Positions 12,187 to 15,819 of a stretch of 20,373 nt of DNA are shown piece by piece. The translations under genes were made by a program, and so were the position numbers. Numbering within the stretch: position 1 is the first letter of the stretch; each line of letters starts with the position of its first letter. Source of the stretch: a virus (taxonomy: Duplodnaviria > Heunggongvirae > Uroviricota > Caudoviricetes); the IMG/VR virus record IMGVR_UViG_2513237361_000008, positions 1 to 20,373 of that record; one strand, 5' to 3'. The notes under the pieces are model-generated. The model was not told the origin of the DNA and did no database searches. It was given only the letters and a program-made list of their open reading frames with translations.

Positions 12187-15100
12187 ATGAGTGATGATAG
12201 CTATAAATTTCAAAAGTTAACGCCGTTCAGCGATGTTGAGCTGGGTGTATATAAAAATGCGATAGATTTTGTTTTTGCCAATAACGATCTAAAAAATGTT
12301 GCGATATCAGGGCAATATAGCGCAGGAAAAAGTAGTCTTATCGAATCCTATAAGAAAAGTCATTCAAATATAAAGTTTGTTCATATCTCACTTGCTCATT
12401 TCAGATCGATTGAGGAAGCTGAAACTAATGAACCAAGTAAAGATATAAATGAAACCGCGTTAGAAGGTAAAGTTCTTAACCAGTTAATTCACCAAATTAA
12501 TGCTGATGATATTCCCCAGACACATTTTAAAGTAAAGAAAAAAATAAAAACTAACAACATTGTGATAAACACCATCTTTACGGTGTTATTTATCGCTATG
12601 ATACTACATATCACGCTATTTAATAAGTGGGAAAAGTTTGTTTCACTTTTATCTGAAGGTAATATAAAGACACTACTTACATTATCAACTAAATACGATA
12701 CGCTTTTAATTAGTGGGTTTATATGTACTATCCTATCTTGTATTTTCATTTACAAGTTAATAAAAACCCAAAAGAATCGTAATGTTCTTAAGAAAATAAA
12801 TTTACAGGGTAATGAAATAGAGATTTTTGAAGAAAGTAACGAGTCTTATTTCGATAGATATTTAAATGAAGTATTGTACCTTTTCGAGAACGTTGATGCT
12901 GATGCCATTGTTTTTGAAGACATGGACCGTTTTAATAGTAATAACATCTTTGAACGTCTTCATGAGGTTAACAGACTGGTTAATATTCAACGGGACACAG
13001 CAGGGCACAAGAAATCGACGTTACGTTTTATTTACTTGCTTCGTGATGATATCTTCATTTCGAAGGATAGAACCAAATTCTTTGATTATATCATTCCAGT
13101 TATTCCTGTTGTTGATAGTTCTAACTCTTACGATCAGTTTATCACACATTTTGATGGTGGTGGTATTCTCAAGTTGTTCAATGAAAGATTTCTACAAGGG
13201 ATGTCTTTATATATTGATGATATGAGAATATTGAAGAATATTTATAACGAATTTCAAATTTATTATAACAAATTAAACACGACAGAACTTGACTGTAATA
13301 AAATGTTGGCCATTATTGCCTATAAGAATATTTTCCCAAGAGATTTTAGTGAGTTGCAACTTAATCAAGGTATGGTTTATACCATATTTAGTGAAAAAGA
13401 CAACCTTATTATTGAAGAAATAAAGAAAATAGAAAAAGATATTAGAGATAGAAAAAAAGAGATTGAGGCAATCAATGATGAAATACTCAACTCTAGTCAG
13501 GAGGTTGATGCTATATACGATAAGGAATTATCTAGATATAATAATCATCCTCACTATAATCAGGCTGAGAAAGCTGATATAGCAAAGAGAAGGGCGGCTA
13601 GAAAAGAAAGTGTTGAAAATAAATTTAATGGTAAAATAGAAGAAATTAATGAGCTTATATCAAGATCAAGAGAAAGTTTGGTTGATTCTAGAAACAAAAG
13701 ACTTAAAGAAGTAATAACTAGAGAAAACATTGATGAAATATTTAAACTCACCTATACCAATGAAATTGGAGAGGAAAGAGACTTTAATGAAATAAAAAGC
13801 AGTGAGTATTTTGACTTGCTTAAATACCTTATTCGTGATGGTTATATTGATGAAACCTATACCGACTATATGACCTATTTTTATGAAAATAGCCTGAGTC
13901 GAATTGATAAGATGTTTTTACGCAGCATTACCGATCAAAAAGGCAAAGAGTTCACTTATCAACTCAAGAACCCCAAGCTGGTCGTTGCCCGCCTTCGAGA
14001 AGTGGATTTTGAACAGGAAGAGGCGCTTAATTTTGATTTATTAGCTTATCTGCTTCAAACGCCAGCCCAGGTAAACTTAATAAAACGTTTATTCAAACAA
14101 CTAAGAAAAGATAGAAGAGTTGAGTTTATTCGTGGTTACTTTGAAACTGAGAGGGCTCAGCCTGTCTTCATTAATCGATTAAATACACAGTGGCCTGAGT
14201 TTTTTTCTTATGCGCTGACAGAGAGTGAATTTTCTGCTGATTGGGTTAAACTCTACTCTATAGGCACGTTTTATTATTCTGCCAATGACGCCATCGAGGC
14301 CATTAATATTGATGATTGTCTGACTGATTACATCTCTGATTCGGCAGGTTATTTAGCAATATCAGAACCGAAGGTTGACAAATTAATTAGTGGTTTTAAG
14401 TTGCTTAACGTCTCTTTTGTCAGTATTAAATTTGAAAACGCAAATAAAGTACTCTTTGATGCGGTTTACCAGCATTCACTTTATGATATTAATTTTTCCA
14501 ACCTGACCTTAATGCTGAGTAAGGTTTACACGCTTAATAGTGAAGATGATATTCGCCATAAGAACTATACACTAGTGATGTCACAACCTGATTCTCCCTT
14601 GGCTAGTTATGTTAATAACCATATTAGGGACTATCTGGATATGGTTTTATCTAGTTGTGATGGTTCAATCGTGGATGATGAATCCATTGTTTTATCCGTT
14701 CTTAATAATGAGGGAATATCTGATGAACAAAAAGGCCAGTATATAAACGCTTTGCAAACTTTCGTGACATCTCTGAGTGAGGTTGAGAGCGAATCTTTAT
14801 GGTCATCTTTGTTGGATAAAGATAGAGCAGTGTGCTCTGAGGAAAATATTGTCTCTTATTTTGAACATGTTGATGGACTGGATGACTCACTTATCGAATT
14901 TATCAATAGAACTGATGTAGACCTGAATTTTCAAAATATTAATATTGATAACGAGCTTAAAGGTAAATTATTTAAATCGATTGTTATCTGTAATGATTTA
15001 TCAAATGATAAATATGAAAAATTAATTTGCTCACTAAATATTATTTGTAAAACATCCTTTAGCGCTAGTAATATCGCGAGTGATAAGTTCAAAATATTAG

Positions 15101-15819
15101 TGGATAAAAATATTATTCGTATGAATGTTGCGCCACTTAATTTCATACGAGATAACTATTCAGAGCAACTTTCCTATTATATTCATAAGAATATCAGGGC
15201 ATACGTTGAATTAATGACGATTGATAACTTTATTTTGGATGAGGCTATATCAATACTTTCTTGGAAAGTTGATGATGATTTGAAAGTTAAGCTACTCGAG
15301 TTTGTTAAAACTCCGTTGGCTATTTATAGTAAGAATTACTCTCAGGTCGTTAATGACTATATTTTAGAAAATAATTTTAAACCAGATGAACTTCTAATCT
15401 TGACGTCATCTTATAAAACTTGGGGAACCTCTACTCAGTCGCTCATCTTGAGTCGAGCAATACAGGATATATCAGCATTGATAGCAAGTCCTAATGATGT
15501 TTCTGAACCGTTACTAAAAAACCTGTTTGTCGCAGAGGGACTGAATATGCAGAATAAAATAGCACTGCTAATCGCTTTGTTGCCGGGTAAGGATTTGAGT
15601 AAGACGACTTGCAAAGAGTATCTTGATCTGCTTGGTTTATCGGAGTTCAGTAAAATTTTGGGGCGAGGCAAACCTAAAATTGAAGTTGATTCAACTAATC
15701 AAAGTTTATTAACAGCATTAAGAGATAACCACTTCTTCTCTGATTTTGAGGTGGATAATGAAAATCCCACTTATTATAAAATAACAAGGCGGCGCTCTAT
15801 GTTTGGCTCAGATACATAG
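12187..15819 (+). CDS. KAP-family-like P-loop NTPase, 1210 aa, with two predicted TM helices inserted in the NTPase domain, a coiled-coil segment and a ~690-aa C-terminal region of unknown function
   Basis: Walker A GQYSAGKS (aa 42-49, nt 12310-12333); hydrophobic helices at about aa 124-145 and 172-192 (nt 12556-12762); Walker B-like AIVFEDMDRF (aa 240-248), resembling the KAP hhhhDDxDR motif; Lys/Glu-rich heptad-like stretch at about aa 403-515; GGGAAGGG SD before the ATG. Roughly 30% G+C hand-counted on one 60-nt line, against about 57% on one line of recE. Confidence 0.75.
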   Translation: MSDDSYKFQKLTPFSDVELGVYKNAIDFVFANNDLKNVAISGQYSAGKSSLIESYKKSHSNIKFVHISLAHFRSIEEAETNEPSKDINETALEGKVLNQLIHQINADDIPQTHFKVKKKIKTNNIVINTIFTVLFIAMILHITLFNKWEKFVSLLSEGNIKTLLTLSTKYDTLLISGFICTILSCIFIYKLIKTQKNRNVLKKINLQGNEIEIFEESNESYFDRYLNEVLYLFENVDADAIVFEDMDRFNSNNIFERLHEVNRLVNIQRDTAGHKKSTLRFIYLLRDDIFISKDRTKFFDYIIPVIPVVDSSNSYDQFITHFDGGGILKLFNERFLQGMSLYIDDMRILKNIYNEFQIYYNKLNTTELDCNKMLAIIAYKNIFPRDFSELQLNQGMVYTIFSEKDNLIIEEIKKIEKDIRDRKKEIEAINDEILNSSQEVDAIYDKELSRYNNHPHYNQAEKADIAKRRAARKESVENKFNGKIEEINELISRSRESLVDSRNKRLKEVITRENIDEIFKLTYTNEIGEERDFNEIKSSEYFDLLKYLIRDGYIDETYTDYMTYFYENSLSRIDKMFLRSITDQKGKEFTYQLKNPKLVVARLREVDFEQEEALNFDLLAYLLQTPAQVNLIKRLFKQLRKDRRVEFIRGYFETERAQPVFINRLNTQWPEFFSYALTESEFSADWVKLYSIGTFYYSANDAIEAINIDDCLTDYISDSAGYLAISEPKVDKLISGFKLLNVSFVSIKFENANKVLFDAVYQHSLYDINFSNLTLMLSKVYTLNSEDDIRHKNYTLVMSQPDSPLASYVNNHIRDYLDMVLSSCDGSIVDDESIVLSVLNNEGISDEQKGQYINALQTFVTSLSEVESESLWSSLLDKDRAVCSEENIVSYFEHVDGLDDSLIEFINRTDVDLNFQNINIDNELKGKLFKSIVICNDLSNDKYEKLICSLNIICKTSFSASNIASDKFKILVDKNIIRMNVAPLNFIRDNYSEQLSYYIHKNIRAYVELMTIDNFILDEAISILSWKVDDDLKVKLLEFVKTPLAIYSKNYSQVVNDYILENNFKPDELLILTSSYKTWGTSTQSLILSRAIQDISALIASPNDVSEPLLKNLFVAEGLNMQNKIALLIALLPGKDLSKTTCKEYLDLLGLSEFSKILGRGKPKIEVDSTNQSLLTALRDNHFFSDFEVDNENPTYYKITRRRSMFGSDT

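Follow-up and report, generated by a model that had tools for sequence, protein, structure and literature searches.

A divergent Tmn/YobI-family NTPase gene, carried in the cargo slot of a Rac-type prophage, as a candidate anti-phage cassette

The large open reading frame described here lies in a viral DNA stretch of 20,373 nt (IMG/VR record IMGVR_UViG_2513237361_000008), which as a whole is called the window below. Judged from its sequence, the product appears to belong to the Tmn/YobI family as a divergent member, and its gene to be a credible defence gene rather than a new type of system. We consider it likely that the protein acts as a single-protein anti-phage system of this family, its gene forming a self-contained cassette that occupies the cargo slot of a Rac-type prophage. 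Tmn (transmembrane NTPase) is a characterised single-gene anti-phage defence (Gao et al., 2020; Wu et al., 2024; Yamashita et al., 2025; Wu et al., 2026, preprint). A previous sequence-only reading had proposed a candidate single-gene anti-phage system; homology supports a probable role of this kind, since over its full length the protein is homologous to Tmn, whose function as a single-gene defence has been validated by experiment. The same reading knew of no characterised defence system with such an architecture in a lambdoid prophage, which has to be corrected: Tmn has it, and prophage-associated members had already been noted. All features are compiled in Table 1.

Table 1. Features of the NTPase gene and its cassette (window positions)
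Feature	Position	Strand	Remarks
Tmn/YobI-family ORF	12187..15819	+	ATG start, 1210 aa
Pfam YobI-ATPase match region (aa 22-398)	12250..13380	+	
Walker A GQYSAGKS, aa 42-49	12310..12333	+	G47/K48 align with Tmn-25 G66/K67, essential for defence
TM helix 1, aa 122-143	12550..12615	+	hydropathy peak 2.29; AlphaFold2 helix
TM helix 2, aa 170-198	12694..12780	+	hydropathy peak 2.16; AlphaFold2 helix
Walker B AIVFEDMDR, aa 240-248	12904..12930	+	D245/R248 = Tmn-25 D276/R279; invariant, 134 family members
Proximal arm, aa ~400-630: long paired helices and conserved block YIDETYxDYMTYFY	13384..14076	+	PADLOC, BLASTP, hhalign, AlphaFold2
Distal arm, aa ~631-1200: alpha-solenoid, presumed trigger sensor	14077..15786	+	
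Mobile single-gene cassette: upstream region, ORF, terminator, hairpin ends	11855..15987	+	cross-locus DNA comparison
Left boundary hairpin TCCGCT-N10-AGCGGA	11857..11878	+	backbone homology to other-cargo loci stops at 11878-11883
Right boundary hairpin TCCGCT-N10-AGCGGA	15965..15986	+	prophage backbone homology resumes at 15957-15965
Extended -10 promoter-like element TGCTATAAT	12097..12105	+	perfect by sequence reading; no good -35
Intrinsic-terminator-like hairpin and T-run	15841..15873	+	9-bp stem at 15841-15863, 5 GC pairs, TTTTT tail

With respect to its family, the protein matches the Pfam YobI-ATPase model PF20693 over the entire profile (residues 22-398 on positions 1-363 of 363; 410.9 bits, E = 8e-123; curated cut-off 27 bits). 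The validated plasmid Tmn proteins that served as references (IncI and IncF plasmid, WP_231828659.1 and WP_001144732.1) match PF20693 as well, with 347-349 bits. In contrast, Pfam KAP_NTPase (PF07693) found neither the 1210-aa protein nor plasmid Tmn even at E ≤ 1. Consequently, the KAP-type identity favoured by the sequence-only reading was dropped, whereas its own caveat, a possible YobI-like NTPase, proved to be the better description. The NCBIfam search delivered nothing meaningful, and in RefSeq the protein (WP_001278661.1) is already named 'YobI family P-loop NTPase'.

Among defence catalogues, PADLOC matched the protein with its Tmn model PDLC02220 (E = 1e-66, 223.7 bits). Two stretches are matched, positions 27-474 and 539-712 of 1273, the second by aa 459-628. 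They comprise ~622 positions or ~49% of the model, while the plasmid Tmn controls cover 100% of it. The census of Wu et al. (2026) included proteins with at least 50% coverage of this model, and ~49% is borderline against that rule and varies with the way in which coverage is counted. Because the model is matched over only ~49% of its length, the 1210-aa protein may fall outside the 785-protein set used to define the Tmn clades. If offered alone, the C-terminal 770 aa gave no match to the PADLOC Tmn model.

Within the NTPase domain, the order of parts is the one that had been read from the sequence: Walker A (G42-S49), two TM helices (hydropathy peaks at 122-148 and 170-193) and Walker B (A240-R248). 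The ORF and the TM insertion within the NTPase domain were confirmed, in keeping with the earlier description as a 1210-aa membrane-inserted P-loop NTPase. Only two 19-residue windows of the protein exceed a Kyte-Doolittle value of 1.6 (starts at 122-130 and 170-175), and both resulting hydropathy peaks lie between Walker A and the F243-R248 part of Walker B, which carries a KAP-like ExDxDR motif. Hydropathy and AlphaFold2 helices concur on two TM helices inserted in the P-loop domain. The outer flanks of the pair are rich in Lys and Arg (KVKKKIK ahead of the first helix, KTQKNRNVLKK behind the second), which fits an in-out-in hairpin that splits a cytoplasmic NTPase domain.

Beyond the NTPase domain, the relationship to Tmn becomes remote, yet it can be followed along the chain. 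Identity to tested Tmn is ~20% overall, ~26-28% in the N-terminal part and ~14% in the distal arm, and BLASTP to plasmid Tmn reaches aa 612-645. By hhalign, residues 5-1189 are collinear with Tmn residues 20-1247. Residues 400-640 alone aligned to Tmn with a probability of 97.1%, and residues 640-1210 aligned to Tmn 715-1271 with one of 96.4% (E = 1.3e-9, 452 collinear columns), compared with E = 0.12 for the reversed control. By this comparison the C-terminal arms, and not the NTPase domain alone, appear to be homologous to Tmn.

The predicted structure gives a similar picture. The full-length AlphaFold2 model (pLDDT 85; helix positions carry a model numbering offset of +10) contains long paired helices at ~404-501, matching a coiled-coil segment that had been noticed before, and ends in an all-helical solenoid (pLDDT 95). 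Its distal arm of ~570 aa is predicted to fold as an ARM/HEAT-like alpha-solenoid, as expected of a member of Tmn, while its NTPase core resembles Cdc6/ORC, NSF-D2 and STAND in structure comparison. Both aspects, the all-helical solenoid and the resemblances of the core, agree with the published description of Tmn. Neither a PDB sequence search (E ≤ 1) nor Foldseek of the full model against PDB (E ≤ 1e-3) returned a match. The C-terminal 690 aa had been described as free of recognisable motifs, which holds for Pfam, where nothing significant lies past residue 398; however, the region shows homology to the Tmn sensor arm. We thus take it as a putative alpha-solenoid sensor arm of the Tmn type, with the sensing role presumed from Tmn.

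Residues with known importance in Tmn-25 allow a closer comparison. All 9 NTPase-domain residues that are essential in Tmn-25 are identical here and near-invariant in 134 relatives: G47/K48, Y231, D245/R248, N266, K297/F298 and R347 correspond to Tmn-25 G66/K67, Y262, D276/R279, N297, K325/F326 and R374, each required for Tmn-25 defence. In the arms, R472 and L777 match Tmn-25 R544 and L867. At the position of Tmn-25 Y541, a required residue of the proximal arm, our protein has R469, where most relatives keep Tyr; Tmn-25 F506 lands in an unaligned stretch of the comparison.

Tmn-25 is described as assembling into a decamer; its solenoid arms recognise a phage protein, whereupon ATP turnover and Mg2+ export lead to plasmolysis (Wu et al., 2026, preprint). 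By homology, the protein studied here would form a large oligomer of the inner membrane, and its solenoid arm would bind an early phage protein. Binding would stimulate ATP turnover coupled to the export of an ion (Mg2+), the cytoplasm would collapse by plasmolysis, and phage development would stall with few progeny released. The drop in ATP may also activate ATP-sensing systems of the same cell. Given the remote similarity of the distal arm to that of tested Tmn, a different trigger and a different phage range are to be expected.

One might speculate that the output differs as well, and that a protein of the same family and defensive role permeabilises or depolarises the membrane (abortive infection, as reported for PifA/F against T7) or exports another ion. 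The Mg2+/plasmolysis mechanism stems from one preprint, one variant and an 11.6 Å map (Wu et al., 2026), the authors themselves propose that divergent homologues may answer other triggers or export other ions, and plasmid Tmn has a different sequence in the TM hairpin and the periplasmic loop. Nevertheless, we regard a different output as unlikely: every catalytic or coupling residue that was probed in Tmn-25 is retained and the two proteins are collinear in architecture, which makes a shared core mechanism the simplest expectation.

The host element is a Rac-type prophage with the gene order of K-12 Rac, in which ydaW is followed downstream by trkG; the sequence-only reading had already pointed to trkG at this place in K-12 Rac. 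A cassette of ~4.1 kb shares 89-97% DNA identity with loci of Klebsiella (L005/L007), Serratia (L008) and Enterobacter (L015/L016) in otherwise unrelated contexts, and its boundaries are constant across loci (11855/11856, or 11926 in L016, and 15970-15987). The settings comprise Rac, a Qin-like prophage, a Klebsiella island and a position alone between Serratia housekeeping genes. With a single ORF per 4.1-kb cassette and no conserved operon partner in these four unrelated contexts, the gene is autonomous at the genomic, as distinct from the functional, level. Two minus-strand ORFs were considered as partner genes and rejected: 15808-16101 is unannotated in RefSeq and lacks a family match, and 11802-12002 is likewise unannotated in RefSeq.

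The hairpin pattern TCCGCT-N10-AGCGGA at both ends of the cassette occurs 2 times in the window, while 0.00 occurrences are expected. In prophages, the cassette lies in a slot between DUF977 and hokD. Hairpins of 24 nt (GTCCGCT-N10-AGCGGAC) flank other defence cargos too, in the DUF977-hokD slot of lambdoid prophages, which elsewhere holds AbiH, SIR2, RelA/SpoT and AAA-ATPase genes. Compared by eye, the boundary hairpins fit the consensus of neither integron attC (GTTRRRY) nor dif well.

In base composition the gene stands out as well, with 32.8% GC against 46.0% in the rest of the window, and 0.30-0.36 over 12001-15500 against 0.46-0.53 in the flanks. This agrees with the sequence-only reading, which had called it AT-rich and equipped with its own promoter-like element and terminator; both were located, as the extended -10 element and the hairpin with T-run. 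A consensus scan upstream of the ORF found no two-hexamer promoter. The element TGCTATAAT at 12097-12105 has the same sequence in the cassettes of Klebsiella and Serratia, and the terminator-like hairpin sits within the mobile cassette. Expression in the lysogen is probably driven by the cassette's own extended -10 promoter.

The gene is present in ~0.6% of complete E. coli genomes and in several other Enterobacterales; in 32 of 32 E. coli genomes it is chromosomal and prophage-borne, with 0 on plasmids. Copies with 88-100% identity occur in E. coli, Shigella, Klebsiella, Serratia, Yersinia, Pectobacterium, Morganella and Enterobacter. The closest distant relatives, with 35-53% identity, belong to Clostridia, Bacilli and Erysipelotrichia, within a large subfamily that is mostly found in Bacillota. 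IMG/VR holds 9 predicted viral contigs with an identical protein, while tblastn against 50,697 deposited phage genomes gave no match. We found no literature citing WP_001278661 and no published experiments on the 1210-aa protein or any member of its subfamily.

Such mobility could mean that the protein mainly serves conflicts between mobile elements, by excluding temperate phages or plasmids or by stabilising the prophage in an addiction-like manner. Its carriers are mobile wherever examined, i.e., prophages, an integrase/IS110 island and a 10-12 kb element with 98% identity across four Bacillota genera. In addition, the gene adjoins hok/sok, sieB and ralR/RalA are located on the same prophage, and plasmid Tmn has been discussed in the setting of inter-MGE conflict. 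However, such a role is compatible with anti-phage defence, the protection given by tested Tmn variants extends to many virulent phages, and no antitoxin-like partner gene was found in the 4.1-kb cassette. As a main function, we thus consider it quite improbable.

Even less probable, in fact barely credible, is a non-defence membrane ATPase, i.e., a transport or stress cargo comparable to trkG, or a decaying passenger. The K+ transporter trkG does lie in this general region of K-12 Rac, and one E. coli copy (H9) is interrupted by IS elements. Yet the homology is to a validated defence family and not to transporters, and the ORF is intact at ≥99% identity (at least 99%) in 31 of the 32 E. coli genomes. 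With an overall dN/dS of 0.18-0.26 the gene is under purifying selection, and decay to a pseudogene was rejected on these grounds. The distal arm evolves fastest (0.25-0.48 against 0.07-0.21 elsewhere). Furthermore, defence genes abound both in the slot and around distant relatives: OLD/GajA/AbiL-type ATPases, SoFic, Schlafen/PDC-S04, type I/III restriction genes, nSTAND3 and recombinases are found near 62 distant homologues, in a neighbour tally made without a background set.

Taken together, the preferred reading of a divergent Tmn/YobI defence protein adds a prophage-borne, sequence-divergent Tmn relative in E. coli and other Enterobacterales, and leaves existing views on the working of such systems unchanged. 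Defence-annotation pipelines may under-call the gene because the available model covers the N-terminal half only. Since the catalytic core of Tmn-25 is kept and the sensor arm is very different, the protein would offer a useful natural test of whether the distal arm sets trigger specificity, and the hairpin-bounded slot may aid the search for further prophage-encoded defence genes. Two further ideas are put forward jointly, as a tentative and rather doubtful proposal: that the Enterobacterales lineage stands for a large Bacillota-derived YobI clade which is only half-recognised by Tmn models and censuses, and would answer a different trigger, possibly against temperate lambdoid competitors of the carrier prophage, and that the hairpins might be sites of an undescribed cassette exchange by which defence genes are shuttled among prophages and chromosomal locations of several genera.

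Among known systems, Tmn is the closest. There, Walker A and Walker B enclose two TM helices, and a coiled-coil proximal arm leads on to a helical sensor arm of ~600 aa; our protein shares the format of one large protein (~1200-1270 aa) with the same part order and Pfam domain, carried on mobile elements without a conserved partner gene. It differs by its 1210 aa, compared to a median of ~1270 aa in the Enterobacteriaceae clades Ia/Ib, and from plasmid Tmn also by its half-covered PADLOC model, its prophage location and its mostly Bacillota relatives. With YobI-like NTPases (PF20693, named for Bacillus subtilis YobI) it has the full-model match, ~1200 aa and low GC in common; unlike the others, this lineage, placed in the family by the Pfam model, has moved into Enterobacterales. 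Older Tmn papers name Tmn a 'KAP NTPase', whereas the 2026 study treats YobI and KAP as distinct families. KAP NTPases (Aravind et al., 2004; PifA of the F plasmid, Enterococcus defence protein EF_KAP) resemble our protein in the membrane-linked P-loop, the DxDR-type Walker B and, for our protein as a prediction, phage exclusion, but their Pfam model does not recognise it. Avs/STAND antiviral NTPases, finally, lack a TM insertion, while in our protein the sensor is C-terminal, a separate effector domain is absent and the effector role is presumed to fall to the membrane hub.

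Based on profile searches, the window protein belongs to the YobI-type NTPases. Pfam YobI-ATPase (PF20693) matched its N-terminal 400 residues over the whole model (E 8e-123), whereas Pfam KAP_NTPase delivered no match even at E<=1. Thus the P-loop assignment of the sequence-only reading was confirmed, but its KAP-type label has to be replaced. A search of the PADLOC library gave one strong match, Tmn (E 1e-66), and the identical protein WP_001278661.1 is named 'YobI family P-loop NTPase' in RefSeq. The architecture, for which the sequence-only reading had named a YobI-like NTPase as an alternative, falls into the catalogued and mechanistically studied Tmn/YobI family. 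Tmn was reportedly first described by Gao and colleagues in 2020 as a single-gene defence system. Later studies dealt with its synergy with Gabija and Septu, with the escape of phages from it and with an anti-Tmn protein; ten clades are published. According to a 2026 preprint (Wu et al.), Tmn belongs to the YobI NTPase family, carries two TM helices within its P-loop domain and assembles into a membrane decamer; the proximal arm is a coiled coil and the distal arm an ARM/HEAT-like solenoid. In the same preprint, T2 RIIB is bound by the Tmn arm, which leads to higher ATP turnover, Mg2+ export, plasmolysis and infection arrest. We consider it likely that the window protein is an anti-phage protein of the Tmn type.

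The gene is a single unbroken ORF with a GC content of 32.8% (GC3 30.2%), against 46.0% in the rest of the window, in agreement with the AT-richness noted earlier. Hydropathy exceeds the usual threshold in two stretches only, starting at residues 122-130 and 170-175. Both lie between Walker A and Walker B, so the proposed order of Walker A, two TM helices and Walker B stands. Lys/Arg-rich segments are found on the outer sides of the two stretches and, as expected, the pair fits an in-out-in hairpin that would keep both halves of the NTPase domain cytoplasmic. Of the expression signals proposed before, an extended -10 and a terminator-like hairpin were found, but a consensus scan upstream of the gene revealed no two-hexamer promoter.

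Features of the gene, its cassette and the surrounding prophage
Feature	Position	Strand	Remark
RalA sRNA	window 1557-1735	+	antitoxin of RalR; conflict-related, same prophage
SieB superinfection-exclusion gene	window 6570-7181	+	conflict-related, same prophage
DUF977 gene	window 11349-11780		left flank of cargo slot
Cassette	window 11855-15987		moving unit: ~330 bp upstream, ORF, terminator
Left boundary hairpin	window 11857-11878		24 nt, GTCCGCT-N10-AGCGGA(C/A)
Extended -10	window 12097-12105		perfect, TGCTATAAT
NTPase ORF	window 12187-15819	+	1210 aa
Walker A	residues 42-49		GQYSAGKS
Walker B	residues 240-248		AIVFEDMDR, ExDxDR type
Terminator-like hairpin	window 15841-15863		with T-run, 3' of stop codon
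Right boundary hairpin	window 15965-15986		24 nt, similar to left
sok antisense RNA	window 16299-16473	+	conflict-related, same prophage
hok/gef toxin ORF	window 16411-16623		conflict-related, same prophage; right flank of cargo slot

The window represents a Rac-type lambdoid prophage. The gene is preceded by integrase, RalR/RalA, RecT, RecE, SieB, repressor, YdaS/T, a DUF1376 replication protein, a DnaC-like protein, DUF1627 and DUF977, and followed by hok/sok, DUF1367, YbcO, Q and holin. This order agrees with that of K-12 Rac, in which trkG is found downstream of ydaW. In E. coli lambdoid prophages the region from the DUF977 gene to sok/hokD is a variable-cargo hotspot. Elsewhere it holds AbiH-family, RelA/SpoT-domain, large AAA ATPase or SIR2 cargo, QueH with or without a methyltransferase, an alpha/beta hydrolase (O157:H7), 'beta family + sce7726 family', KilA-N and several hypothetical genes. 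The two boundary hairpins, a pattern found twice in the window against zero expected, flank the cassette. In three prophages with other cargo (AbiH, RelA/SpoT and AAA ATPase; L011, L012, L013) backbone homology ends and restarts at the same hairpins, at which the Klebsiella, Serratia and Enterobacter cassettes (L005, L008, L015, L016) end as well. These shared ends point to an exchange of cassettes that may be site-specific or guided by the palindromes. In Serratia, an extra copy of the left-end motif lies ~45 bp past the right cassette end. In Klebsiella (L005/L006/L007, 11784-13051) an IS110-family transposase gene starts ~30 bp past a truncated right hairpin; palindromic sites are frequent targets of IS110-family elements.

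Of 5426 complete E. coli genomes, 32 carry the gene, on the chromosome every time; identity is at least 99% for 31 copies, and one is broken by IS elements. In the latter, strain NN5 (NZ_CP126348.1, hit H9), the IS5-like elements ISKpn26 and IS903B split the gene into three pieces; strain D1 (NZ_CP010134.1, hit H41) carries an IS66 element inside the DUF977-hokD region. Nine IMG/VR viral contigs carry the gene, and near-identical proteins (88-97% identity) exist in Shigella, Klebsiella, Serratia, Yersinia, Pectobacterium, Morganella and Enterobacter. Cassette copies reside in a Qin-like prophage, in a Klebsiella island with integrase, IS110 element, HNH and methylase genes, as a solitary insertion between housekeeping genes of Serratia, and in Enterobacter, with the same end points in every context compared. 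Against the orthologues of these copies, dN/dS is 0.18-0.26 overall, highest in the distal arm (0.25-0.48) and 0.07-0.21 in the other two regions. These values argue that selection maintains the gene and that the distal arm, the presumed sensor, changes fastest. Distant full-length relatives comprise 4702 matches, with at least 150 clusters (50% level) aligning whole-length at 34-51% identity, and are overwhelmingly Bacillota. Because relatives from Bacillota dominate and GC is low, horizontal acquisition by Enterobacterales is the origin the data point to. Within the subfamily, a member with 48% identity to the window protein lies on a 10-12 kb segment that is common to four Bacillota genera, Vagococcus (L026), Clostridium sp. 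(L027), a Sedimentibacter MAG (L028) and Erysipelothrix (L070), at ~98% DNA identity; this indicates a mobile element that has been spreading recently.

The nearest upstream and downstream ORFs of 62 distant loci (121 proteins) were scanned. The commonest families are OLD/GajA/AbiL-type ATPases (AAA_21, AAA_15), most frequent with ~5 of the 121 ORFs (loci L017-L093), Fic/SoFic, Schlafen-AlbA2 with HATPase_c_4 (PDC-S04), type I/III restriction subunits and SWI2/SNF2; nSTAND3, methyltransferases and serine or tyrosine recombinases are frequent as well. Such neighbourhoods resemble a usual defence island on mobile DNA, which is supportive only. The OLD/GajA/AbiL neighbours are reminiscent of plasmid Tmn, which is reported to co-localise and synergise with Gabija and Septu.

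For comparison, two Tmn proteins from plasmids were taken as references. The IncI protein WP_231828659.1 carries the annotation 'anti-phage transmembrane ATPase'; the IncF protein WP_001144732.1 is encoded beside Gabija-like genes. The IncF locus (L003) also adjoins VapBC modules and a UvrD helicase paired with an AAA ATPase. Both references cover the PADLOC Tmn model completely (>2000 bits) and match YobI-ATPase at ~348 bits. The window protein is only 26-28% identical to them (BLASTP), and the alignment fades past residue 612-645. The Tmn model matched residues 9-439 (profile 27-474) and 459-628 (profile 539-712), together ~49% of the model, and the last 770 residues alone gave no PADLOC match. 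However, a profile of 134 full-length relatives was collinear with the plasmid pair from residue 5 to 1189. Residues 640-1210 alone were collinear with Tmn 715-1271 (96.4% probability, E 1.3e-9), against E 0.12 for the reversed-sequence control. Judged by these profiles, the window protein is homologous to Tmn end to end, though not close in sequence. An AlphaFold2 model of residues 11-1210 (72-sequence alignment, pLDDT 85) contains both TM helices and, at ~404-501, long helices arranged in pairs; its C-terminus is helical and has a pLDDT above 90. Modelled alone, residues 601-1210 (pLDDT 95.4, pTM 0.81) comprise 38 short helices, on average 9 residues long, and a small terminal beta-hairpin. 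The C-terminal region, once called unrecognisable, is the presumed sensor arm of the Tmn/YobI family.

Since the IncI reference is locally identical to Tmn-25, the variant studied mechanistically, round every mutated residue (numbering offset of two), the published mutagenesis can be applied to the window protein. The nine residues of the NTPase domain that Tmn-25 needs for defence are all identical in the window protein and near-invariant in the subfamily: G66/K67 (G47/K48 in the window protein), Y262 (Y231), D276/R279 (D245/R248), N297 (N266), K325/F326 (K297/F298) and R374 (R347). R544 and L867 are likewise conserved, whereas the Y541 position is Arg in the window protein and Tyr in most relatives. 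A Mg2+/plasmolysis output is less certain, because one preprint on one distant variant stands behind it.

Taken together, the first reading of the sequence was correct and the function it proposed was of the right kind. What is new is limited: the candidate defence protein is strongly divergent and belongs to a subfamily found mostly in Bacillota, the current defence HMM covers only half of the protein, and its gene travels on a compact cassette within the cargo slot of a prophage.
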